DNA from: a virus
Lineage: Duplodnaviria; Caudoviricetes
IMG/VR virus record: IMGVR_UViG_3300028030_000038
Coordinates: 1-34,440 of that record
Strand: one strand, 5' to 3'
Length of the DNA: 34,440 nt
Shown here: piece after piece, positions 18,862-34,440 of the stretch
Layout of the letters: every line of letters begins with the position of its first letter
How positions within the stretch are numbered: the first letter of the stretch is position 1
The notes under the pieces: generated by a model
What the model was told of the DNA's origin: nothing
The model's input: the letters and a program-made list of their open reading frames with translations, nothing else
The model's database searches: none
Program-made: the position numbers and the translations under genes

Positions 18862-21218
18862 AAGTACCTCAATACCAGCAAGGTCGTGTAGCACCTGATT
18901 CAGTTAATCAGCAAAAGATTAGCGGTTTTGTTGGTGATGGTGGTTTAGGTCAACTCGGCAATGCCGTATCTGGTGTTGCTAAACAGTTTGAACAGGCACA
19001 ATTTGAAGTAGATCAAACTATTGCACAAGAAAGAATAAATCTTTTAGAGCGTGATTACCTAACAATCAAGCATGATCCTGAACATGGCTATTTTAATAAG
19101 TCTGGCAAAGATGCTTACGATGGGCGCGGTGACACCTTAAAAGCTTTAGAAATTGCCCGTAAAAATCATTTAAAAGGCCTAACCCCTGCACAGCAAAGAA
19201 TGTTTAACCGTGTTGCTGATAAAATGGATATATCTACACGACAACAAGTAGAAGTTCACGCCTCAAGAGGTATGAAAGCATGGCAAGTGGCAACCGAAGA
19301 AGCAACACGCGAAAATGCTCTTGAAAATGGTATGGTTAATTATCAGAATGATAAAGAATTAGCCGTACAACTAGCCACCATGCGAAATTCAGTAGTTAAT
19401 TCAGCAAAGATGCAGGGCATAGGCGCAGAAGCAACCAATGAACGCTTGCAGACAATGACAAGCAAGTTCTATTCAGGTGTTATCAGTCGGGCATTGGAAG
19501 ATGATACAGGGCGCGCTAAAGAACTATTTAAGCGTGTCGAAAAGCTACTGGAGCCAGCGGATAGATCGGTTGTGAAAAAAGCCATAAAAGGCACAATACA
19601 AAAACAATCCGCTATACAAATGGCAGATTCATGGATGGATAAAGGTTATTCTATCTCTAGGGGAATGGAAGAAGCTAGAAAAATCTCTGACCCATACCTA
19701 AGAGAAGCAACAGAGCAGCGCTTTAGGCAGATAAAGGGCATTGAAGAACAAGAAACAAAAAAGCGTGAGATAGAAAGCGCAGATATAGTTTGGGATGCTT
19801 ATTCAAAAGGCGAAATACCAGATAATAAATACATCGAGAATATGTCGGGACGTGCGCGTATTGCTTATAAAAATGCTGTACGGGCAGATAATGAGAGAAA
19901 GCTCAGAGAACAGGAAAAAGCAGAGAAAGAAAAAGAAACAGAAAAATACCAGCTTTATGCAGGCCAGGTCTTTGATGGTGCGTCATGGGATTCAGTCAAG
20001 GATTCAGTCAAAGATTTACCTGTAGAAAAACGGAAAAGCATTAAAGCTATTGCCATAGCCAATACTAATTATAAAAAAGCAATAGATTCAGCTAATGAGA
20101 AACAGGCTAAGGACGCTCAAAAACAATACTTTGAAGTATTAAGAAAAAGTATGCTAACTGGTGGATTAAGGTATGACACCATAGCAAAGATGCCAGAGGC
20201 ACTAAAACGACTTGATAGCACACAGATTGCAAGTTTGATGAAGGTCAGTGCTGCAATGGATAAGCCAAAAGTAGATGCCCAGGAAGCACTACGCAAGAAA
20301 CAGGCCATTTCAAGGCAATGGCAGATAGAGCAGCAGCTTTACCAGATACAAGATTACGACGAAGCAAAACGTGTCTTTATGGAAAATATTGATAAGTTTG
20401 AAACAATCGGTGAGCGCAACCGTGTATTGAATAAATTAAACTCACTTAATAAAGAGCGCGCTAAAGCAGGTCATGTCGATACCGTTATACCGATAATGAA
20501 GCGTATTAAGGCCGTTGCTGGCAAAGACGAAGCAAAGCAAATGGCTTTATGGCAAGAATGGGATGCGTTTCAAATGGCCGTTGCTTCTACTGGTCAAAAA
20601 GTTGACGCGAAACAAACAGACAAATTTTTTCGTGATGCTATTGCCAACAAAGAAAATAGCTCATGGGGTACATCTTTTGAGGAAAGTATTAGTGGATTGG
20701 GGGTGCAGGAATCAAAGAACTTCTTACAGGGAGAAATGGCAAAACAAAGAGATAAATCAAATGCTAACTATGTAAGAGGTTTCCGAGAAAGGTTTATACA
20801 GGACGCTGCGAAAACGTCAGGAATACCAGATTTTGTAATAAAGAAACAAGTAGGTCAGGAGAGCGGATACAACCGCAACGCCAAAAGCCCGACAGGTGTC
20901 AAAGGGCTTCACCAGATTACAACCTCAACAGCCAAAGCCTATGGGTTCGACCCTAAGCGGGTGAGAAGTAATCGCAAAGAAGATGAAGCATACCAATGGA
21001 ACGCCTATGCAACCATTATGCGCGACATGAAAAAGCAAATGGGTGGGAGTGTAAAATGGGCGTTGGTTGCCTATAATGCAGGGCCAGGCAACGCAAAACG
21101 GATGCGAGCAGGAAAAATGCCACTCCCTATTAAGAAAAAAGGCAAGGTAATTAAGACGGCAAAGCAGGTAAAAGCTGAGGCATTAGGATACATTAGACAC
21201 ATTTTAGGCTCTGAATAA
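18858..21218 (+). CDS. internal virion/ejection protein (gp15-like) with a C-terminal lytic transglycosylase
   Basis: MKVPQY start (ATGA overlap); helical body; SLT motifs QESGYNRNAKS, GVKGLHQI, ALVAYNAGPG. Confidence 0.85.
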   Translation: MKVPQYQQGRVAPDSVNQQKISGFVGDGGLGQLGNAVSGVAKQFEQAQFEVDQTIAQERINLLERDYLTIKHDPEHGYFNKSGKDAYDGRGDTLKALEIARKNHLKGLTPAQQRMFNRVADKMDISTRQQVEVHASRGMKAWQVATEEATRENALENGMVNYQNDKELAVQLATMRNSVVNSAKMQGIGAEATNERLQTMTSKFYSGVISRALEDDTGRAKELFKRVEKLLEPADRSVVKKAIKGTIQKQSAIQMADSWMDKGYSISRGMEEARKISDPYLREATEQRFRQIKGIEEQETKKREIESADIVWDAYSKGEIPDNKYIENMSGRARIAYKNAVRADNERKLREQEKAEKEKETEKYQLYAGQVFDGASWDSVKDSVKDLPVEKRKSIKAIAIANTNYKKAIDSANEKQAKDAQKQYFEVLRKSMLTGGLRYDTIAKMPEALKRLDSTQIASLMKVSAAMDKPKVDAQEALRKKQAISRQWQIEQQLYQIQDYDEAKRVFMENIDKFETIGERNRVLNKLNSLNKERAKAGHVDTVIPIMKRIKAVAGKDEAKQMALWQEWDAFQMAVASTGQKVDAKQTDKFFRDAIANKENSSWGTSFEESISGLGVQESKNFLQGEMAKQRDKSNANYVRGFRERFIQDAAKTSGIPDFVIKKQVGQESGYNRNAKSPTGVKGLHQITTSTAKAYGFDPKRVRSNRKEDEAYQWNAYATIMRDMKKQMGGSVKWALVAYNAGPGNAKRMRAGKMPLPIKKKGKVIKTAKQVKAEALGYIRHILGSE

Positions 21219-24200
21219 TGAGTGAATTTGATTTGATACCAGAACCAAAAGAAGTAGATGGGGATTTTAACCTTGGTCTTACTCCTGAAATTACTTTTGA
21301 TGATATTCCAGAGCCAGACGCGATGCAGTCACCGCAAAGCACACCTGATATTCTTGATGAAATACTTTACCAAAGTGCAGATGTAAACCCAAAAGATGCA
21401 GCTGATTTTACTCGCCTGTCAAAAAAATATGACCTACCCGTGCCTGAAGCAAAAAACGCATTGCCAGAACTTCGTAAAAAGGAAAAGGTAGAAAGTTTTA
21501 ATATCGAAGAAATGCGCCAGAACTACCCTGGACTTAAAAAAATGATAGAGGGTAATCCTACTTTAGCATGGGTGTTTAGAGACCATATTGATAACTTGAA
21601 AGGGTTGGAGGACTTGGCTCAGGGTAATAACAAAAATTCAGCAGTAGGCAATATGCTAAGAAATGCTGGTGAGCGTGTAACTACTCTTGCTGGTAATGCA
21701 GTTGGTTTCGTTGATACCGTATCAAACAGCATTGAAGAAACTCTGCAAGAACACAATATGGGGTTGGGTGAAATCACCTATCGGCAGCCCAAAGACTGGA
21801 AGGAAGTATTTACCTTTGGGAATATTGGCTATCGAAGCGGTGCCGAGGCGCAAAAGCTCAAAGATGAAGGCAATTACCCCAAAAGCCTAACAACACAACT
21901 GGCGGATACGATAAAAGATACGAAGTTTGGTTATGTTCCAGATGCCACATGGGAAAGCGTCAAAAAGAAATTTAAAGACGGTGGCGCTTTAAGTGCCGAC
22001 TCATGGGGTGAATTAATCGCTTATTCCTTTGAAACAGGTGGTGCATCACTTGTTGATATGGGCGCGATGGTAGCCAATCTCCCTGTTTATATCGCCTCAC
22101 GTGCTAAAGAAATGGGCGACGTGAGGTCTAAAAATAAAGGGTTAAAAGAAACTACAGGACAAGAAATAGCAGAAGCTACACCGTTCGTTATTGGTTCAGT
22201 TCTACTTGACAAGCTTTCATTGGGCAAAATGCTAGGTGTTGGCAAGGCTGCAAACGAAACAGCCGAAAAAATAGGCAAAGATGCCCTTGAATACACCTAT
22301 AAGAAAGCAGTGAAGGAAGCTGGAAAAGCAACTGGCTTTGAAATGACCACTGAGTTTGTTCAAGAAGGCTTGATTGAATACGTTGGTGAGAAGTTTGGAA
22401 CAAAGGCAAAAATGCGGGCGCAGGAAGCCTTTGACAGGGGTTTAGGTGGGGCAGTTGCAGCAGGGCCATTGTCAGCTTCAATAAGTACGGCTTCAGGTGT
22501 CGTAAACACAAGAGAGGCAGCAAAACAAAAAGCGTTAAAAGTAGAAACTGAAATAGCTCAAAAAACAGTACAGGGTGCTACCGATCAAGACAAGCTCGAT
22601 CAATACACAAGCCTAGCACAATCACTCATAGAGCAAAGCCCCGAATCAGCCAATGAAGTTCTTGAATCAATGCAAGAGCAATACCCTGATATGCCCTCTC
22701 ATGTCACCATCCAGGCGCGAGATTTAAAAGAGGGAATATCAGAGGTAGAAATAACGCCAGAGGTAGAAAAATACTACTCTGAAATATTAGAAGGTATGCC
22801 AACCAATGAAGATATTGAAATACCTTTAACCGAATATGCTCAATACTTTGCGGAAAGTGGTACGATACGCGAGAACGTGCGCCTATCCCCTGATGGTATG
22901 TCAATCCTTGATATAAAGAACGCTGAACCAGCGATGAATGCCATTACTGAGCGCATGATGAAAGAAGCTGACCTGAGTATCAAAGAGCATGAAAAATCAG
23001 TAGAGATTTACAATTCCATTGCCGACCAGCTTTATGACACTGGAAAACTATCAAGCCGTGAAGCTAAACTAGCAGCTAGTCTTTATCCTGCTTATATGGC
23101 CCGCGCTGCCAAAGAGCATGGCATAACCATTGAGGAAGCTTACAACACAATACCTGGTATTAATATCACGGCTAAGGATGAAGTCGCGCCAGAGAAAGCA
23201 TTGGAGCAAGCTAAGACTGAAACAATCGGAGAATTAACAGCAAGGCTGAGTGCAAACTACCCTATAAAGTCATTATCATTACAAGATGGTGATGTGCTTA
23301 CGCTATCAGATATTGAGATTGAAAAAGACAGTAGAAAATCTGGCGAAGGTTCAAAAGTAATACAAGAAATTATTGATTATGCTGATTCAGTTGGAAAACG
23401 TATTGAGCTTACGCCTGATAAAAAAGAAGGTGCTGGAACTACATCTATAAACCGTTTAAAGAAGTTTTATAAATCTCATGGTTTTATTGAGAATAAAGGT
23501 AAAAATAAAGACTTCTCTACAACTCATGGCATGTACAGAGAGCCAGCAAAAGGCTTAAAAAAAGACAGTGCCAACCTACTTGCTCAATCAAAACAGGCAG
23601 AAAGTGGGGGGGTGTCACAAACAGAAACGCCAGAGTTTAAAGCATGGTTTGGTAACTCAGAAGTGGTAGACAAAAAAGGCGAACCATTAATTGTTTATCA
23701 TGGTTCGCCTTCTGAATTTGATGTATTTGACCAAAAAAGAATAGGTGCTTCAGCAACTGCGGAGGGGTACGGATTCTATTTTACTGACAATAAAGATATA
23801 GCCAAAGGTTACACAGGTAAGGATGGTAACTTGATGAAAGTATATCTTTCCATGAAAAAACCAATAGATACTAAGAATAAAAGATTTTCTGTTAGTGAAT
23901 TGAAAAAGATAATCAATACGGCTATTGATAACGAGATAAAAAAGTATGATGGTGAAATAGAGGACTACAAAGACAGCTTTATCTCTAATTATGTTGATAC
24001 CTATGGTATGTCTAGGGATGCGGCTGTTTCAGAAGTTGCTCAAATACTCTATGATAATAATGATAACGCAGTGGATCAAATTTCAGAGCTTGTGAATGTC
24101 TATGGTGATAAGGAAGATGTAGCAAGAGCGGTAACTGAATCAACGGGCTATGACGGTTATCACGTAAAAGACTTTCAAGATGGAGAGGGTGATGTTTATA

Positions 24201-27200
24201 TCGCATGGTTCCCTGAGCAAATAAAATCAGCAACAGACAATTCAGGCGCGTTTGACCCTAACGATCCAAGCATTCTAAAGCAAGAAAACCGCGCCTCAAT
24301 CCAGCGCACAAAGAGCGAATACCTGATTAACTTAGGTAAACAATCAGACCGTAGCTCGTTCCTGCATGAATCAGGACACTTATTTCTTGACCTAGAGAAA
24401 ACCTTTGCAGAAAAGTACGGCTTAACAGATAACCAAAAAGCAATACTCGCATATCTCGAAGTAGATAGTTTTGATGATATTGATTTCTTCAAATACGTTG
24501 ATATGGAAACCCGCCTAAAAGCTGGTGAAGATATTGGCATGAGCAATAAAGAGCTTAAATCAAAGCTTGATACTGCCAGGGCTGCACATGAAAAGTTTGC
24601 TGAATCGTTTGAGGCTTATCTACACACAGGAAAAGCCCCATCGGTAGAGTTACGCAATGCGTTTAGGGCTTTTCGTGATTGGTTAATAGGCGTTTATAAA
24701 TCACTCGTTCCACACGGCATTACGCTATCTAAAGACACCACAGATATGTTTGACAGTTTACTTGCCACTGAAGAGCAGATAGCGGAAATGGAGGCGACCT
24801 ATCACTATGAAGAAGATGTAAAGGCAACGACTAAGGCAAAGGAAATTTTACAGACACAGTTGTTTAAGGAGCTTTACAAGCGCGCCTCTGATGATTGGAA
24901 GTACGAAAAAGCCAAAATAGCCAACGAAATTAAAAAGGACTTAGAGGAAAGCGATTTATACAAAGCTGAGGACTTTATATCTAAAAAAGAGAATCGCCTT
25001 GATGAACAGCAAGTAGGTGAGGCATTAGGTTATAGAGAACCTAAAAGCACGAGAAAGAAAGAACTTGATCCTAGTCAAGATAGTTTACTTGTAGCTATTG
25101 CTAAATTGGGCGGTATTGACCGCGAACACGCAGAACAGCATGGTATTAACCCTGCCTATTGGTCTGGTAAACGTAACCTTTCTAATTCATTAGTTCCCAC
25201 CAAGCCAGTGTTTCGTGCTAAAAATGGATTATTTCTGTCTGATTTAATGGAAAAGTTGGGTGATGAAGGATATGTTGATTATAACAATCAGTCAGAAAAT
25301 GATTTATTGAATATGATCGACGATGAACTACGTGGTGTCGAGCATTATTCTAACAGGTATGAGCCTGATTTATCAGAATACACAGAAGAAGATGCAAACG
25401 CTGAATATCCAAGAAAGCCAAAGCGTTTATACGGCACCACGGCTAAAAATGGGCTTGATATTGATCTTGTTGCAGAACAGTTTGGTTATTCATCTGGTGA
25501 AACTATGCTGCGCGATCTGGCAGAATCCAATCCTATTGATGTTGAGGCATCTAACCAGGCGCAAGAAATAATGCTCGAAAGGCATGGAGACATTTTAAAC
25601 GATGGCTCTCTTGAAGAACTTGCAAAAGAAGAAGCGTTTAGTGAGGAACGAGGTCGCGCATTAATCCGTGAACTTAAAAAGCTAAACAAAAAACAAACGT
25701 CTGGCATAAACCGTGAAATGCTACAGCGTTCAGCAGAAAATATCATTGCTAATACGCCATTAAATAAACTACGCCCTGAGCAGTATCACAGAAAAGAAGT
25801 AAAAGCCTCACAAGAATACCAGCAGTACAAAGCTAATGATGATAAAGATATGATGGTCCAGGCTAAAATGGATCAGCTTATTAACTTCTATTTGTACCGT
25901 GAAGCGCGCAAGGCTAAAGAACAATCAGAGAAATACCGCGATTATTTGCAGAAAGTAAAAACACGCAAGTACAGTGCTGGAACGGTTGATTCTGAATACA
26001 TTAATCATGTTAAAAAGTACGTTGCATTGTTTGAGTTTAGAAAGAATCCCGATAAAACAAATGCACTTACTGAACTGCAAAACTTATCAAATTGGGTGCA
26101 ACAGCAGAACTTAACCAATCCAGAAGGATATAAACCACAATTTTATCATCCACTACTTGCTGAACTCGCCGATCCAGAAGTAGATAGTTCTCAATTAAAA
26201 ATTAAGAGCTATAAGGAAATGACACCAGATGAACTACGGCAGATAAACGAAATGACAAAACACTTGTTATTTATTGGTCGTAAATTATCGAATGACAGCA
26301 AGATGGAGGCTAAGCAGGTTGTTTATGATCTTGAAAAAGCAGCAGAAAAAAACCTGACAAAAAAGAACAATCCAAAACGTAAAAAAGATGAGAGCTGGCG
26401 TGATACGTTTAGTTTTTGGGCGCAAGCCAGCACCATGCTACATATACGAGAACTTGATGGAACATTAAATAAGCGCGCAAAAATGGCAGACGGTGCGTTC
26501 TATAAGAACATCTGGACACCTATCCTTGAATCATCGAATGTTCATGTTGAGCTTGAAGAAGAACTGGACAATGCAATTAAAGAGCAAATACGCCCATACT
26601 TTGATAGGTTGAAAGGAAAGTCAAAAGACTTTGATACTGAGGGCGGAACTCTAACGCTTGATGGTGAGCAAAGGATTATGTTTGCGGTGTATTATGGCTC
26701 TGAAGAATCTCGCCAGGCATTGCTTGAAAATGGAGGTGCCAATAGTGGTTCAATACTAGAGCATCAGGCACAGACTATTCTTGATTCATTAAGCGATGAA
26801 GATATCAAGATTGTTGAAGCAATTTGGAAGATAAACGAATCTCTACGCAGCCGTGTATTCCAAACTGAAAGAGATATTAACGGTATCGCACCTAAAGCGG
26901 TTGAAGCCGTGCCATTTACAGTAAATGGCAAAGAACTGAAAGGTGGATACCAGCGGATCAAATATGAGAGTCATGCTAAAGATGAATTAGGTCGTGATGA
27001 TCCAATGACTGCTGCCATGAATAGTATTGGTCGTGCTGGTATTAGCATGAGCAAAACAGGCTCAACTATTGAGCGTAAAGGCTCTGGCGGACGTACATTA
27101 GCTCTTGAATTTAATAATTTCACTGGATCGTTACAAGAAAACGTACAATTTATTGCTTATGCAAAAACCTCCAGACAGGTACACCAGATATTATCTAATC

Positions 27201-28360
27201 CTGATTTAAAAGCAACACTGCAAGAGCGGTTAGGTGATGATAGATACAGGGCAATGATTGATAGTATCAATGGTACGTTTGTTGGTGAAACCATAGGTAA
27301 TTTTGGAAGAAGTAAAGCGGTAAACTTTTTCAGAAATGCTAGGCAAAAAATGTCAGTCGCCATGCTCATGTATTCGTTCAGAAACATAGTACAGCAGGTT
27401 ATTGGTGGAACTAACCTAATGGTCAATTTAAAAACTGCGGATTATTCAAAAGCCGCCTTTGATTTCATGGGTGATACAAAAGAATGGACTGATTTTGTTG
27501 AATCACGCTCACCCATGATGCGTAACCGGATGAAGTTTACCAATCGTGAAGTAAACGAAATGGTTGGAAGCCTGGCTAATTCTGCTGATAATAGCTTTAT
27601 AGCTGGTGCAAAACGCTACGGATTCGCGCCACAAACGGCGATTGATAAAGCAATGGGTATGCCAGCATGGTTAGCTGCCTATCGTGATGGCATGGCGATG
27701 TATGGCAACGAGGAGCAAGCGATACAACATGCAGACCAGTTGATTGTTGATGCTCTCGGTTCTGGACAGTCAAAAGACCTACCGCCATTATTTACGGGTG
27801 CCGGGCAAGGAGGCAACCCATTAGCTATCGAAGCAATGAAGCAATTTAGCTTTATGGGTTCGTTCTTCAATATGGTGGGCCAGCAGTATTATAGAACCAT
27901 TAAAGGTAATAAACTATCCACAGTTAAAGGAGCAACAACAGCAGCACGTGATATGGCCTGGACACTGGTAATTCCTGCAATACTATCTGCATTAGTAGTA
28001 GATGATATTCCAGATGAAGAAGAATGGTGGAAATGGTCGCTTAGAAAAATAGGTGGATACGGGTTATCATCTATCATTGGGATCAGAGAAATATACTCAT
28101 TATCAGTAGAAGGGTTTGCGCCTAGTTCACCTGCTGCTAACACTTATAAGGCAATGGATAGGATATTCAAATCCACTAACTCAGTGGTTGTCGGTGATAA
28201 AGAGTTTAGCGCTGAGTATATAGCAAAGATGCTAAAAGCAACGGCACCATTTTTGGGGATTCCAGGTCAATATCAAGCGGCGCGAATGATTGAAGGCGCA
28301 GTAGATGATAATCAGGATATATACGGTGCTTTAACAGAAGGAAAGGAACGTAATAAATGA
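21218..28360 (+). CDS. large ejection / polyvalent protein (gp16 position) with GNAT, ART-like and zincin domains
   Basis: 2380 aa. GNAT: SRKSGEGSKVI...RLKKFYKSHGF. ART-PolyVal-like: FKAWFG.S.VVD..GEPLIVYHGS...GFYFT...QIKSATDNSGAFD. Zincin: FLHESGH...HEKFAESFE. Confidence 0.85.
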   Translation: MSEFDLIPEPKEVDGDFNLGLTPEITFDDIPEPDAMQSPQSTPDILDEILYQSADVNPKDAADFTRLSKKYDLPVPEAKNALPELRKKEKVESFNIEEMRQNYPGLKKMIEGNPTLAWVFRDHIDNLKGLEDLAQGNNKNSAVGNMLRNAGERVTTLAGNAVGFVDTVSNSIEETLQEHNMGLGEITYRQPKDWKEVFTFGNIGYRSGAEAQKLKDEGNYPKSLTTQLADTIKDTKFGYVPDATWESVKKKFKDGGALSADSWGELIAYSFETGGASLVDMGAMVANLPVYIASRAKEMGDVRSKNKGLKETTGQEIAEATPFVIGSVLLDKLSLGKMLGVGKAANETAEKIGKDALEYTYKKAVKEAGKATGFEMTTEFVQEGLIEYVGEKFGTKAKMRAQEAFDRGLGGAVAAGPLSASISTASGVVNTREAAKQKALKVETEIAQKTVQGATDQDKLDQYTSLAQSLIEQSPESANEVLESMQEQYPDMPSHVTIQARDLKEGISEVEITPEVEKYYSEILEGMPTNEDIEIPLTEYAQYFAESGTIRENVRLSPDGMSILDIKNAEPAMNAITERMMKEADLSIKEHEKSVEIYNSIADQLYDTGKLSSREAKLAASLYPAYMARAAKEHGITIEEAYNTIPGINITAKDEVAPEKALEQAKTETIGELTARLSANYPIKSLSLQDGDVLTLSDIEIEKDSRKSGEGSKVIQEIIDYADSVGKRIELTPDKKEGAGTTSINRLKKFYKSHGFIENKGKNKDFSTTHGMYREPAKGLKKDSANLLAQSKQAESGGVSQTETPEFKAWFGNSEVVDKKGEPLIVYHGSPSEFDVFDQKRIGASATAEGYGFYFTDNKDIAKGYTGKDGNLMKVYLSMKKPIDTKNKRFSVSELKKIINTAIDNEIKKYDGEIEDYKDSFISNYVDTYGMSRDAAVSEVAQILYDNNDNAVDQISELVNVYGDKEDVARAVTESTGYDGYHVKDFQDGEGDVYIAWFPEQIKSATDNSGAFDPNDPSILKQENRASIQRTKSEYLINLGKQSDRSSFLHESGHLFLDLEKTFAEKYGLTDNQKAILAYLEVDSFDDIDFFKYVDMETRLKAGEDIGMSNKELKSKLDTARAAHEKFAESFEAYLHTGKAPSVELRNAFRAFRDWLIGVYKSLVPHGITLSKDTTDMFDSLLATEEQIAEMEATYHYEEDVKATTKAKEILQTQLFKELYKRASDDWKYEKAKIANEIKKDLEESDLYKAEDFISKKENRLDEQQVGEALGYREPKSTRKKELDPSQDSLLVAIAKLGGIDREHAEQHGINPAYWSGKRNLSNSLVPTKPVFRAKNGLFLSDLMEKLGDEGYVDYNNQSENDLLNMIDDELRGVEHYSNRYEPDLSEYTEEDANAEYPRKPKRLYGTTAKNGLDIDLVAEQFGYSSGETMLRDLAESNPIDVEASNQAQEIMLERHGDILNDGSLEELAKEEAFSEERGRALIRELKKLNKKQTSGINREMLQRSAENIIANTPLNKLRPEQYHRKEVKASQEYQQYKANDDKDMMVQAKMDQLINFYLYREARKAKEQSEKYRDYLQKVKTRKYSAGTVDSEYINHVKKYVALFEFRKNPDKTNALTELQNLSNWVQQQNLTNPEGYKPQFYHPLLAELADPEVDSSQLKIKSYKEMTPDELRQINEMTKHLLFIGRKLSNDSKMEAKQVVYDLEKAAEKNLTKKNNPKRKKDESWRDTFSFWAQASTMLHIRELDGTLNKRAKMADGAFYKNIWTPILESSNVHVELEEELDNAIKEQIRPYFDRLKGKSKDFDTEGGTLTLDGEQRIMFAVYYGSEESRQALLENGGANSGSILEHQAQTILDSLSDEDIKIVEAIWKINESLRSRVFQTERDINGIAPKAVEAVPFTVNGKELKGGYQRIKYESHAKDELGRDDPMTAAMNSIGRAGISMSKTGSTIERKGSGGRTLALEFNNFTGSLQENVQFIAYAKTSRQVHQILSNPDLKATLQERLGDDRYRAMIDSINGTFVGETIGNFGRSKAVNFFRNARQKMSVAMLMYSFRNIVQQVIGGTNLMVNLKTADYSKAAFDFMGDTKEWTDFVESRSPMMRNRMKFTNREVNEMVGSLANSADNSFIAGAKRYGFAPQTAIDKAMGMPAWLAAYRDGMAMYGNEEQAIQHADQLIVDALGSGQSKDLPPLFTGAGQGGNPLAIEAMKQFSFMGSFFNMVGQQYYRTIKGNKLSTVKGATTAARDMAWTLVIPAILSALVVDDIPDEEEWWKWSLRKIGGYGLSSIIGIREIYSLSVEGFAPSSPAANTYKAMDRIFKSTNSVVVGDKEFSAEYIAKMLKATAPFLGIPGQYQAARMIEGAVDDNQDIYGALTEGKERNK

Positions 28361-30573: not shown

Positions 30574-30605
30574 CTAGTACAAAACGCAAGGTTCATCATC
30601 AAGTC

Positions 30606-30765
30606 CGTTGTGGTAGCTTAACAACAGTGATAGCGCCAAGCACACTGTATGTGCAATTCGCTACAAAGATGGCAAGGCTGCAAACGAAACAGCCGAAAAA
30701 ATAGGCAAAGATGCCCTCATTCTGAGTATTAGAAAAGTCTGTGGTGAGCCATCTTGTCTTTTTTT
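30606..30765. ncRNA. putative multi-hairpin RNA/terminator after the tailspike gene
   Basis: GTTGT/ACAAC hairpin; TAGCG..GCACA/TGTGC..CGCTA hairpin; AAGATGGC/GCCATCTT stem followed by a T-run. Confidence 0.45.
30670..30717 (+). repeat. exact 48-bp copy of 22240-22287
   Basis: TGGCAAGGCTGCAAACGAAACAGCCGAAAAAATAGGCAAAGATGCCCT is identical at both positions; the flanking bases differ. Confidence 0.95.
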
Positions 30766-30800
30766 AGATTGATAATTCTTTGATTGGAGAATTGCACAAA

Positions 30801-30875
30801 ATGATCTGGTACAAATTCTATATAGGCGATTACACCGCCGACACTAAAACCAGGGCTTCTGCTCTAAGTTTTTAA
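30801..30875 (+). pseudogene. 5' remnant of a DUF1376/YdaU-type replication gene
   Basis: GGAG RBS, then MIWYKFYIGDYTADT (the family's N-terminal signature); stops after 24 codons. Confidence 0.65.
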
Positions 30876-30933
30876 TGGCTTTTTTTGTTTCTGCGATGTC
30901 CTGATTAATTCTAATCGACAAAAGGGTTTAAAA

Positions 30934-31059
30934 ATGAAATATCCAAAAGATATACTTCTTAGTGAAACAGACGAAGAATTCATGAAGCTTGTTTCCAGTG
31001 TTATCATAGAATATCCAGCGTCAAAAGATGCAATAGTCGCTCTGTTAGAAAAAATATAA
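30934..31059 (+). CDS. small hypothetical protein (41 aa, possibly truncated)
   Basis: MKYPKDILLSETDEEFMKLV...LLEKI*; the frame continues KEGYTIEDNKDIKK* past the stop. Confidence 0.4.
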   Translation: MKYPKDILLSETDEEFMKLVSSVIIEYPASKDAIVALLEKI

Positions 31060-31112
31060 AAAGAAGGCTATACGATAGAAGACAACAAGGACATTAAGAA
31101 ATAAACTATTAA

Positions 31113-31141
31113 TTGTTTTTCTATGGAATTTAAATTAAAAT
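31113..31141 (+). promoter_or_regulatory. promoter of the replication operon
   Basis: TTGTTT, 17-bp spacer, TAAAAT, ending just before the structured leader. Confidence 0.45.
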
Positions 31142-31147
31142 ATTAAT

Positions 31148-31202
31148 CGCGGTTAAGGCTTGATCACCTGAATCCACATCCTAGTTCGGAGCCGCGTTTT
31201 TT
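31148..31202 (+). ncRNA. C4/CI-like branched antisense RNA or leader
   Basis: Closing stem CGCGGTT/AGCCGCG, two inner hairpins and a T-run; loop TCCTAGT is complementary to downstream ACTAGG(A) repeats. Confidence 0.55.
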
Positions 31203-31241
31203 ATTTCTTTAATACTAGGTCATAAATACTAGGAGTCAATA

Positions 31242-31352
31242 ATGTCTACTCAAGACAGTAAAAAATCAAAAAGAAAAGGAATACCAAAGAAAGTAAGATT
31301 TGAAGTTCTCAAAAGAGACTCATTCATAATTGATCTTGGAGGTTATACCTAA
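31242..31352 (+). pseudogene. 5' remnant of an HNH endonuclease, coupled to the initiator gene
   Basis: RKGIPKKVRFEVLKRDSF matches HNH N-termini, but the CxxC and HNH core are absent; AGGAG RBS; TAATG overlap. Confidence 0.65.
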
Positions 31353-32230
31353 TGCCAAGAGCAAGAAACCTAAAGTATCAATTCTTTACTAATGATGAAG
31401 TTGCAGAACTTGAGCCAATAGAAAGATTATTTTTTATGGCGCTATGGTGCTTAGCAGACTACAAAGGTGACATAGAATGGAGGGAAAAGAAAATAAAAAT
31501 ATTAACACTTCCTTATGATGATGTTGATGTAAAAAAAATCGCGATTAATCTGGATAAATCTGGACTCGTTCGAATGTACGTTGAAAATGGTAAAATGTAC
31601 TTAAACATAACAAATTTCATTAAGCATCAGAATCCCCATAAAAACGAAAGAGACAAAGGAAGCGATATTCCTTGTTTCAATGAAAAATCTCGCCAACTCA
31701 TTGATTTTAATACACTCACGATTAATCCAGACAAAAACGGAACTACTCAAGATAAAGACGAAACCAATCGTGCTGATTCCTTATCCCTGAATCCTGATTC
31801 CCTTAACCCTATCCCTGAATCCTGTATCCTGAAACCTGATATCCGAGATAAAGAAAAAAAACAAGATAGTTCAAAAAACGAACTATCAGTCGATAAGAAA
31901 AAAACAAAAGTTGATCAAGTATTCGAGTATTGGAAAAAAATATTAAACCATCCGAGAGCTGTGCTTGACGATAAAAGAAAAAGAATAATAACCAAAGCAT
32001 TGAAAAACTATTCAGTAAACGATTGTAAGTCTGCAATAAAGGGATGTTTATTAACACCGCATAACATGGGAAAGAATGACAATCATAAAATATACGATGG
32101 AATACATATAATCTTCAGGGATGCAGATAATATTGAAAGATTTATTTCAAGCAGCAACCCTAACCAACAATACGAAACCCACATAAACGAAACAGAAAAA
32201 CTGGTAGCACGATTAACAGGAGGCGCATAA
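31352..32230 (+). CDS. phage replication initiator (lambda O-like role)
   Basis: MPRARNLK..FFTNDE.AEL...RLFF.ALWCLAD..G, NF.KHQNPH; repeat-coded linker; C-terminal VFEYWK..LNHPRA domain. Confidence 0.85.
   Translation: MPRARNLKYQFFTNDEVAELEPIERLFFMALWCLADYKGDIEWREKKIKILTLPYDDVDVKKIAINLDKSGLVRMYVENGKMYLNITNFIKHQNPHKNERDKGSDIPCFNEKSRQLIDFNTLTINPDKNGTTQDKDETNRADSLSLNPDSLNPIPESCILKPDIRDKEKKQDSSKNELSVDKKKTKVDQVFEYWKKILNHPRAVLDDKRKRIITKALKNYSVNDCKSAIKGCLLTPHNMGKNDNHKIYDGIHIIFRDADNIERFISSSNPNQQYETHINETEKLVARLTGGA
31782..31838 (+). repeat. iteron-like repeats inside the initiator gene (candidate origin)
   Basis: TATCCCTGAATCCTG at 31782 and 31810; CCTG recurs with 7-bp periodicity; an A-rich tract follows. 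Confidence 0.5.
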
Positions 32231-32231
32231 C

Positions 32232-33128
32232 ATGACAAGCAGCGCAGATATAATCAGGTTAATTAAACTAACAGCAGATGAATATGGCAAAAACCTATCA
32301 GATGCCCAATATTCATTATATGTAAAAGTTCTAACACGATTTAGTATAGAGCAACTAAAGAAAGCTATTGATGCTCATCAATTCGACCCTGAAAACGGTC
32401 AATGGATGCCTATGCCAGCGCATCTGATAAAACACATCAACATTAACGATGGCAGACCAACAGCAGATGAAGCATGGTTAAACACGCCAAAATCAGAGCA
32501 TGAATCAATTTCATGGACAGAAGAAGCTAGGCAAGCATTTTTAGAGCTTGAAAGCCAAAATCCTAATGCCACAGATATTGAAATGAAAATGGCGTTTAGA
32601 CCTCTCTATGATAGACTGGTTAGTGAGGCGCGCTCTAATGGCGTTCCTATGAAATGGGTTAATACATACGGCTTTGACTCAGAAGGGCGCGAGGAATGCA
32701 AAAAATTAACGGACAGGCGCAATTATGATTGTGGTCAACTTTTAGAATTGCCTAAACCAAAAGATCACGAGCCATTAGAAGGTATTGCCTATAAGCCTAC
32801 AAAATCAAACGGTGAAAAAATACTTTCTGAGTTGATTGGTGAGCTTGATCACAAAATAGCCGAAGAAAAAACAGCGCTAGTCAAAAAAATAATACTTGAT
32901 GTTGAGCGTGATAATTCGCCATATATTGGTCATTTCAAGCCAACAAAAATAAACATGACCAAAAAACAGGAAGGGATAAATAAAATGCTTGTTGGTATTG
33001 GTGATAATGAAATTCTTGAAATAGAAATTGATGGCGGATTGAATCAATTTTTTGCGAAATGTGGAGCAAGACTGACGCCCAATTGGATAGAAAATAGTTT
33101 TTTATATACTGAAATTAAAGCCAGATAG
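32232..33128 (+). CDS. replication accessory / helicase loader-like protein
   Basis: Follows the initiator; WMPMPAHLI, GRPTADEAW, SISWTEE, MAFR.LY.RLV..AR motifs. Confidence 0.7.
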   Translation: MTSSADIIRLIKLTADEYGKNLSDAQYSLYVKVLTRFSIEQLKKAIDAHQFDPENGQWMPMPAHLIKHININDGRPTADEAWLNTPKSEHESISWTEEARQAFLELESQNPNATDIEMKMAFRPLYDRLVSEARSNGVPMKWVNTYGFDSEGREECKKLTDRRNYDCGQLLELPKPKDHEPLEGIAYKPTKSNGEKILSELIGELDHKIAEEKTALVKKIILDVERDNSPYIGHFKPTKINMTKKQEGINKMLVGIGDNEILEIEIDGGLNQFFAKCGARLTPNWIENSFLYTEIKAR

Positions 33129-33307
33129 AAATAGCTAAAAAGAAAGTGGCTTTCACAGAGTCGACCAAAGGTGGTATCTACACTGGAACAGTCGAAGAAG
33201 TTTGCAAAGTAAAAATAAGAATCAAGGCAGATAGGGAGTTTTCCCATAATTTCAGACGCGGCTTGGCTTGGAGAAGACTAGAACACTTGCTGAAAATACC
33301 AGTGTAA
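33125..33307 (+). CDS. 60-codon open frame without a standard start, ending in attC-like site 1
   Basis: IEIAKKKVAFTESTKGGIYTGTVEEVCKVKIRI...KIPV*; first codon ATA; its TAA is part of GTGTAAC. Confidence 0.35.
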   Translation: MEIAKKKVAFTESTKGGIYTGTVEEVCKVKIRIKADREFSHNFRRGLAWRRLEHLLKIPV

Positions 33308-33388
33308 CCTTTGAGAACAGCGGGCGGCGGTTTGCAGTTTGAGAAAGAAGCCATGACTATGACCGTCCGCTGATTTGAGTTGTTAGTT
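33302..33388 (-). mobile_element. attC-like recombination site 1 (87 bp)
   Basis: GTGTAAC-6nt-GAACAGC(GGGCGG)...(CCGTCC)GCTGaTTT-5nt-GTTAGTT. Confidence 0.75.
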
Positions 33389-33411
33389 TTGAATAAATGA
33401 GAATGTAAATT

Positions 33412-33672
33412 ATGAAATGCGAACAAAGAGATAAAGTAAACAAGCTAAGTTTAGAAGATGTTTCAGGGTTTTTCAGAGAAGAAACGAACTTCAAATATAA
33501 TTATGCTGAGATATATGAAAAGTACATGGCTGGTAACCTGGATATTCCAGAATATATATGGAGGGAAGTCACAAAATATATTGATGCGAAAAAGGGGACG
33601 AAAGAGTTAAATACTGCTATTTGTAATTTGCAGAGGCTCCTGCGCACATCTAGCAGAAAACCAGCCCGGTAG
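33412..33672 (+). CDS. hypothetical protein, cassette A
   Basis: 86-aa ORF that fills the interval between attC-like sites 1 and 2. Confidence 0.7.
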   Translation: MKCEQRDKVNKLSLEDVSGFFREETNFKYNYAEIYEKYMAGNLDIPEYIWREVTKYIDAKKGTKELNTAICNLQRLLRTSSRKPAR

Positions 33673-33676
33673 GGCA

Positions 33677-33808
33677 AACTAACCTCAAGCACAAAGCGAC
33701 AAGCGAACAACAAAACAGAATTTAAATTAACACAAGGAGCGAAAACAAAAGCACTGAATTATGAAACAAGTCCTGCTTAGCGCGGTCGCTTTAGTGCCTT
33801 TGTTAGGT
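33677..33808 (-). mobile_element. attC-like recombination site 2 (132 bp)
   Basis: AACTAAC-6nt-CACAAAG(CGAC)...(GTCG)CTTTaGTG-5nt-GTTAGGT. Confidence 0.8.
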
Positions 33809-33816
33809 TTTGATTT

Positions 33817-34257
33817 ATGCAAGACGCAACAAAAGATGGTGATGCTGTATATTCAACTGACGGCGAACGATTTGAATATACAGAATATGATGACGCTGTT
33901 GAAATGGCGTTTGATTTCGAAGATTTAACAATAGGGTCTACTGCATCAGTATTTAAAGGCAATGCGAAATTAAAAAAAGCATCTGATTATTTGCCGAGTT
34001 TCATAGACGAAATGATTGAATCATCTTACGAGGATTTAGGCGAACATGCTGAATTTTGGCTCTATGAGATGAAGCCAGAAGATGGCAAGGAGCTAGAATC
34101 TATTCTTAAAAATACTGTTGATAAATGGATGGACGAAAAAGGATTATCACCAACATTTTTTGGGGTTGACAATATTCAAGAAATTAAACTTGAATATTGT
34201 GTAACTGAAGACGGAAAAGGAACGGAATACAAGCCGTGCGCTACTAGCACAACCTAA
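33817..34257 (+). CDS. acidic phage hypothetical protein, cassette B
   Basis: 146 aa; starts 8 nt after GTTAGGT and its stop codon is the TAA of ACCTAAC. Confidence 0.85.
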   Translation: MQDATKDGDAVYSTDGERFEYTEYDDAVEMAFDFEDLTIGSTASVFKGNAKLKKASDYLPSFIDEMIESSYEDLGEHAEFWLYEMKPEDGKELESILKNTVDKWMDEKGLSPTFFGVDNIQEIKLEYCVTEDGKGTEYKPCATSTT

Positions 34258-34383
34258 CCTTTTACTTAAAACGACTGCGGGTTTGGACAGATGATTTCTA
34301 TTCCAGGAAGAATTTAATAAAACTTGCTAACTCGGAAAAGCCGCTTGAGTTAGCAAGTCCATGTTTTGAAGCGGTTGTTATAT
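34252..34383 (-). mobile_element. attC-like recombination site 3 (132 bp)
   Basis: ACCTAAC-6nt-CTTAAAA(C)...(G)TTTTgAAG-5nt-GTTATAT; extrahelical G at the canonical position. Confidence 0.8.
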
Positions 34384-34410
34384 TGTGTTCAAAAAAACTG
34401 AATTCTTTTC

Positions 34411-34438
34411 TTGACAGTTACCGATAACATTGTATTAT
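34411..34438 (+). promoter_or_regulatory. sigma70 promoter with an operator-like palindrome
   Basis: TTGACA (34411-34416), 16-bp spacer, TATTAT (34433-34438); GTTA-CCGA-TAAC palindrome in the spacer. Confidence 0.6.
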
Positions 34439-34440
34439 TA

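Follow-up and report, generated by a model that had tools for sequence, protein, structure and literature searches.

Reversed attC-like sites and a likely site-then-gene cassette variant in a tailed phage

Background

Strand selection by the integron integrase (IntI) is thought to serve the readable orientation of promoterless genes. Classical attC sites, such as aadA7 and VCR, contain R and L boxes, 5- and 6-nt spacers, and a first extra base (Bouvier 2009, PMC2727003; Nivina 2016, PMC5027507). On the bottom strand, the extra bases sit on the arm opposite the AAC triplet, and promoter-facing cassettes are reported never to have been seen in bacterial integrons (PMC5027507).

The closest described systems are the phage CALINs of Qi et al. 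2023 (PMC9892861), especially that of Pseudoalteromonas phage H101 (PH101). According to that paper, five of six phage sites recombined with IntI1, the bottom strand better than the top and with correct junctions. Two H101 sites belong to these five, and P12002L_attC1 was the sole failure (PMC9892861). The available text of the paper is silent on genes carried by the bottom strand; TJE1 and PH101 are called typical, and only P12002L divergent. SALINs, formed by GWT insertion, could provide a further, attI-free seeding route (bioRxiv 10.1101/2022.09.11.507474).

The window analyzed here is a whole linear record of 34,440 nt from a tailed phage. Its three attC-like sites, S1, S2, and S3, form a short array with small genes and an integrase not found, as in the phage CALINs. 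The array shares its reversed polarity with H101, where one site also has an extra base A, unlike the array of TJE1, which is classical. R and L boxes, spacers of 5 and 6 nt, and the first extra base resemble those of classical attC sites, as do the variable loop, the total length of 81-126 nt, and the predicted cleavage in the bottom-strand AAC. Unlike in classical cassettes, the gene in the window lies on the bottom strand after its site, and the stop codon can be the crossover core; unlike in a classical integron, the contig has no visible attI, Pc, or intI. The left core of S1 reads GTT on the minus strand, in common with the SALIN route, whereas SALINs were described for bacterial chromosomes and classical cassettes, as far as the preprint was available.

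The current work suggests that S1-S3 are probably integron attC sites with the coding strand as their bottom strand, and that they belong to a site-then-gene cassette variant likely moved by IntI in trans.

Results

Location of the array

The record is 79% complete (CheckV) and ends 60 nt past S3. The sequencing run that covers it best carries the label hydrothermal vent metagenome and is a possible source. PHROG matches identify a tailed phage, with almost every gene on the + strand. The contig starts with ninB-, ninG-, and resolvase-like genes (PHROG matches). Terminase, head-tail, internal virion, and tail genes are followed by the replication initiator, a second replication-region gene, and the array. 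By this PHROG gene order, the array is part of the variable region that follows the replication genes. The features of the region are:

31352..32230, + strand: replication initiator in a lambda O-like position (PHROG 16167, E 2.7e-62)
32232..33128, + strand: gene after the initiator, in a P-like position (PHROG 6028, E 5.8e-25)
33146..33307, + strand: 53-aa ORF of uncertain reality; its TAA stop is the S1 left core
33305-33385 (feature span 33302..33388), + as bottom strand: attC-like site S1, 81 nt, extra base A
33308..33682, + strand: predicted cassette A, 375 bp, S1 then gene A, from site polarity; right end at the 33680 break (run X2)
33412..33672, + strand: gene A, 86 aa, an ORF only; starts 26 nt past the S1 right core
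33680-33805 (feature span 33677..33808), + as bottom strand: attC-like site S2, 126 nt, extra base A
33683..34257, + strand: predicted cassette B, 575 bp, S2 then gene B, ending in the gene B TAA; both ends backed by contigs
33817..34257, + strand: gene B, 146 aa (PHROG 1672, E 1.1e-17); its stop codon is the S3 left core
34255-34380 (feature span 34252..34383), + as bottom strand: attC-like site S3, the weakest, 126 nt, extra base G
34411..34438, + strand: near-consensus sigma-70 promoter-like site (11/12), directly past S3 and pointing out of the contig

Direct repeats with a period of 14 nt (family D1) occupy 31779-31848, inside the initiator gene, and may be origin iterons, a role that we assume from lambdoid biology by analogy with lambda. 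No family matched the 53-aa ORF at 33146..33307. A search for tyrosine recombinases gave 0 PF00589 matches in this contig, a linear fragment that is 79% complete. Neither attI, Pc, nor intI was seen on the contig; an attI would fall beyond its right end. No terminators were called within the array. The nearest replication module among viral contigs (L368) is without an array, and blastn of the region against phages, and of S1 against plasmids, gave chance matches only. Searches of Rfam (gathering thresholds), PADLOC, and PDB gave no match, and no RNA runs carrying the window sequence were listed.

Elsewhere in the record, a 2380-aa virion-region protein (21218-28360) contains the ADP-ribosyltransferase domain of polyvalent proteins (PF18760, E 1.5e-25). 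The same protein has a weak methyltransferase-like PHROG match. At 1133-2407, a phage lysozyme domain (residues 247-378) is joined to a 240-aa N-terminal part without known family. About 780 nt (30574-31351) separate the tail fibre gene from the initiator, and neither a repressor nor an integrase was recognized there.

Polarity of the sites

On the + strand, the left arm of each site consists of the TAAC core, a 6-nt spacer, three outer L-box bases, and the inner stem. The right arm consists of one unpaired base (A, A, and G in S1, S2, and S3), three outer bases, a 5-nt spacer, and GTTA. All three sites therefore show inverted R boxes with AAC/GTT cores, being bounded by TAAC and GTTA, and their spacers of 5 and 6 nt agree with the 5 nt on the R'' side and 5-8 nt on the R' side that attC sites have. 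In an attC bottom strand, the extra base of the L box comes after the three outer pairs, on the arm across from AAC; it takes this place in S1-S3 when + is read as the bottom strand. The outer Watson-Crick pairs number 2 in the bottom register versus 1 in the top register for S1 (two of three plus a G-T), 3 versus 1 for S2, and, read from the sequence, 3 versus 0 for S3. The aadA7 bottom strand is printed in Table S3 of PMC9892861 in a layout that matches S1-S3. The original prediction had placed the unpaired base in the downstream arm, with spacers of 6 and then 5 nt, and had recognized in the + strand the bottom-strand pattern of classical attC sites; the first is seen in all three sites, and the second agrees with the printed aadA7 strand.

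In the window, a geometric scanner assigned a polarity to S1 and S2 and to no other site, both with the bottom strand on plus. S3 fails the stem threshold of the scanner, having 5 inner pairs followed by a 3-nt bulge. Among 200 second-order Markov simulations, 150 contained no site, 48 contained one, 2 contained two, and none contained a cluster of three. S1, S2, and S3 are mutually too divergent to register as direct repeats, yet the unpaired-base geometry is kept. Compared with shuffled sequences, their hairpins in isolation show no striking stability (z -1.0 to -2.5). With three sites in 1.1 kb and no integrase found on the sequenced part, the array constitutes a CALIN, for which at least two attC sites within a few kb and no intI are expected.

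A strong hairpin with its own TAAC and GTTAG cores is located in the S3 loop, at about 34320-34359. This hairpin might be a nested site or a competitor of the recombinogenic fold, and S3-like right halves are found again in sequencing runs X1-X4. A two-arm S2 pattern gave 0 viral matches and a one-arm S2 pattern 120 loci with no arrays; a scan for the S3 inner hairpin gave 3 loci, which are unrelated.

The strand was also called independently, with training sites from bacteria that were collected in a GTDB scan and oriented by their genes. An end-sequence profile was built from 35 of 44 bacterial sites, pairing information not being used, and covariance models were built from 27 short and 15 long bacterial sites. 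When each locus was left out in turn, the profile called the coding orientation correctly in 35/35 bacterial sites. In the window, it scored minus as the top strand above + as the top strand at every site (S1 11.5 versus 3.6, S2 10.0 versus 4.3, S3 14.3 versus 10.5). Covariance model R1 found S1 on the minus strand only (24.6 bits, E 0.0019); in a control, it found 3/3 TJE1 sites on the coding strand. Model R2 ranked S1 first and S2 third (9.5 bits, E 1.7), both on minus, and S3 was recovered by neither model. Scoring both strands with attC models had been proposed as a check on the predicted inversion. Minus was called the top strand by the profile for S1-S3, by R1 for S1, and by R2 for S1 and S2; the opposite call, with + as the top strand, which would have spoken against the inversion, was not obtained.

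Under crude constraints, the probabilities of the recombinogenic fold for S1, S2, and S3 were 0.013, 0.10, and 0.003 on + versus 0.016, 0.17, and 0.004 on minus. These estimates are low and give + no advantage over minus. Base skew was uninformative, the GC skew of the top strand being negative in just 20/35 bacterial sites.

Units and cargo genes

Contigs of four runs were compared with positions 30600-34440, with 14 loose ends and 8 pieces lying outside the display. In run X2 (study P2), record 9 matches 33680-33907 with 2 differences, and 46 unlike letters precede the S2 TAAC. The break at this core indicates that S2 moves with gene B. In run X3 (study P3), record 17 matches 33874-34258 through the S3 TAAC, after which the final 84 letters fail to align; S3 is thus not carried by gene B. 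Each of these junction contigs is a single low-depth record (4.8 and 5.9) that shows one cassette end. The breaks locate the crossover only to the 4-nt TAAC core, and its exact position at the A-C bond is taken from PMC2727003. Cassette B is therefore a core-to-core unit in varied neighbourhoods, with ends at 33680 and 34258 observed in two other studies; the boundary evidence covers both of its ends and only the right end of cassette A. The site-then-gene units that had been predicted, cut at TAA/C, hold in that the breaks fall at the left cores of S2 and S3, at a resolution of 4 nt and not of the A-C bond.

Further contigs show related arrangements. In X2 record 11, the right part of an S3-like site is immediately followed by a ribosome-binding motif and an ATG on +. 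In the second genome of run X1, a different gene precedes an S3-like site in which the left arm differs and the right part is the same. Among the contigs of the four runs, no clean excision joint and no joint skipping a whole cassette are listed. The only joint listed is in one low-depth X4 contig, which skips 33762-33847 (86 nt; the S2 right arm and the start of gene B). In run X1, several contigs branch at 30670-30745.

A search for relatives of gene A returned gene A itself only, and no usable Atlas match was obtained. Gene B belongs to a family that is widespread in phages, with 418 relatives at E<=1e-3 among 50%-identity representatives, and its nearest Atlas clusters are mostly viral. 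The right core of S2 provides AGG shortly before the gene B ATG. The flanks of the family were inspected in 4 of 9 records, the family having no sufficiently conserved block for an alignment-based locus search. In all four of these cultured phages, the relatives are tightly packed operon genes with no space for a site, and the scanner found no attC-like site beside them. Close relatives of gene B were not found in viral contigs; in metagenome contigs the search returned its own contig only (L123), and a word search returned gene B itself only. In a classical cassette, the gene precedes its attC and is encoded on the top strand of the site, whereas genes A and B are on the bottom strand.

Survey of arrays

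One S1-derived pattern, run through the same pipeline, gave 121 loci in viral contigs and 124 in bacterial and archaeal genomes. The unit counted was the non-redundant segment between sites of the same polarity, and the strand of its longer ORF was recorded. The bottom strand carries this ORF in 26 of the 38 viral segments (the top strand in 11, neither in 1) versus 2 of 27 bacterial segments. By locus, a bottom-strand majority is found in 11 of 16 viral arrays (4 top, 1 tie) versus 1 of 16 bacterial arrays. The Fisher p values, with ties left out, are 4.5e-7 for segments and 1.7e-4 for loci. Judging by the longer ORF is a crude method where DNA is GC-rich, and each of the 68 viral candidate ORFs was therefore compared with PHROGs; 11 matched, 10 of them on the bottom strand and 1 on the top. 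The polarities given by R1 and the scanner agree at the array loci save for one site (L061 1942-2023), which is absent from the segment counts.

Such a survey of attC orientation in phage genomes had been suggested together with the idea of a phage-specific architecture. The counts (26/38 versus 2/27) establish an enrichment in phages; specificity or universality does not follow, TJE1 being classical. An extra base A, present in S1 and S2, had also been pointed out; it is rare in both sets, in 5/91 viral and 6/82 bacterial sites, and the idea that it is a special, phage-specific trait was rejected. A stop codon in the next core is found in 12/26 reversed viral versus 5/25 classical bacterial segments, which is not significant (p 0.075).

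IntI above the TIGR02249 cut-off was detected in 2 of the 22 records searched, both phage-like and both with the gene next to reversed cassettes. In both records, intI and the reversed cassette genes share a strand. In one of them (G013; L388 12211-15089), intI shares 4 nt with the beginning of the gene for the terminase large subunit, and intI, terminase, and reversed cassettes are apparently in one operon. Measured against the attC top strand, both IntI-bearing platforms are conventional, and the flip is confined to the genes.

Three contigs have a near-identical site in common: L089 carries the left-half site variants of L018, with the same upstream gene, and the right-half variants of L067, with the same downstream gene. 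Here the crossover is within the site, not at the core. A homology break at the 4-nt core is also found in the pair L005/L066. In L005, at about 1670-1690, a collapsed site with cores only 5 nt apart stands before a gene to which L066 gives a full attC; the arms look as though they had been lost between two GTT triplets.

Published phage arrays

In H101, every annotated gene of the array region is on minus, and both bottom strands cloned by Qi et al. are on minus as well. R1 finds four sites, all with the top strand on plus, so that 4/4 are reversed. Given the recombination by IntI1, the strand-specific assay that had been proposed as a check has already been passed by one reversed array, that of a lytic phage in culture. 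Two H101 cassettes share an 85-nt stretch whose end is at TAAC, with different sites behind it, and two units have in common 108 nt (61 exact) that start at TAAC after different sequence. The 85-nt trailer (L390 1974-3985) is identical in its two cassettes, and an apparent antisense leader and short opposite-strand ORFs are also seen there.

In ctTUS972, 5/5 model hits are reversed. It is the only one of five further phages from Table S1 of PMC9892861, as available, in which R1 found sites, the other four being without a polarity call; the scanner found no sites in jenny 12G5 and 3/49. TJE1 is classical at 3/3 sites, with its array downstream of the replication genes. The scanner places the three TJE1 sites with the bottom strand on minus, in agreement with the two that are given in Table S3 of PMC9892861. 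P12002L is mixed, with a reversed attC1, the site that failed with IntI1, and a classical attC2.

Discussion

Four things are observed: the geometry of the sites, their strand, the boundaries of the units as far as the TAAC core resolves them, and the enrichment in phages. Other explanations of them have to be weighed against movement by IntI. Homologous exchange at common sites, seen in L089, L067, and L018, is the main rival. The sites may descend from reversed attC sites and now be mainly short common linkers for phage homologous recombination, with IntI acting on them rarely or not at all. The contig yielded no integrase, the crossover in these three loci is inside the site, the second genome of run X1 has an S3-like site with another left arm and the same right part, the fold probabilities are low, and S3 is degenerate, all of which fit such linkers. 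We nevertheless regard this explanation as unlikely: S1-S3 are divergent yet keep an unpaired-base geometry that is relevant to IntI and not to homologous recombination, and homology breaks at the 4-nt core in X2, X3, L005/L066, and H101.

Bacterial cassettes of a rare kind, with the gene against the array, might have been captured from a host integron. Capture of host integron parts by phages does occur (PMC9892861), and the longer ORF is on the bottom strand in 2 of 27 bacterial segments. Genes A and B, however, are co-oriented with the phage operon, the gene B family is an ordinary phage operon gene elsewhere, the reversed layout is the majority in viral arrays, and promoter-facing cassettes were never observed in mobile or chromosomal integrons (PMC5027507), which makes such a capture very improbable. 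Slightly less credible still is a classical register, in which the sites would function as gene then site, with crossover at the right-hand GTT, despite their geometry. Top-strand recombination occurs at low frequency (PMC5027507), and the outer-pair margin of S1 is one pair; against this, gene B occurs in other samples with S2 upstream and without S3 downstream, and the H101 repeats end and begin at the left core. The lowest probability of all is assigned to palindromes that mimic attC by chance or act at the RNA level as terminators or processing hairpins. The folding z-scores are modest, and the model score is weak for S2 and missing for S3, whereas simulations rarely give two sites (2/200) and never a three-site cluster, the array contains no Rfam match at gathering thresholds and no terminator call, and homology breaks precisely at the cores.

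If S1-S3 are attC sites moved in trans, IntI would come from the host, from another phage infecting the same cell, or from the fifth of the genome that the record lacks. It would cut the folded + strand at TAA/C and excise or insert 33308-33682 and 33683-34257. The cassette genes would probably be expressed by read-through from the phage early operon that spans the replication genes. A bottom strand on the lagging-strand template is reported to fold and excise more (PMC5371416, PMC11023631). With a rightward fork from the putative origin in the initiator gene, the + strand would be the lagging-strand template, and its folding would be favoured; the reversed build could thereby preserve both an active array and a gene direction that agrees with that of the fork. 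This rationale is no rule, because the classical array of TJE1 lies downstream of its replication genes. The target rule of GWT insertion (bioRxiv 10.1101/2022.09.11.507474) suggests that the array may have started at a TAAC stop without attI. At a host attI, these cassettes would presumably face the promoter and be silent, and such silence would separate the phage pool from the bacterial one.

The reversed layout likely marks a phage-adapted pool of swappable genes for a borrowed integron integrase. More tentatively, and with some doubt, phages may build and trade their own mirror-image cassettes from ordinary phage genes, with a hairpin before the gene and a TAA stop as the crossover core, these cassettes remaining separate since they would be silent at the host attI.

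Conclusions

In the full-text literature searched, most subscription papers being outside its scope, no paper was found that describes a phage layout with genes on the bottom strand of attC. That a majority class of cassettes in phages bears its gene on the opposite strand means that a second architecture is served by the same chemistry. By implication, tools that assign genes to the downstream attC misplace the boundaries of phage cassettes. Since H101 is cultured and its reversed sites have already been recombined by IntI1, the idea of reversed cassettes is directly testable. Cargo from ordinary phage gene families offers a handle on cassette genesis, to which the reversed layout may be linked. 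If phages do build a mirror-image pool of their own, the cassette and non-cassette forms of gene B would catch the birth of a cassette.
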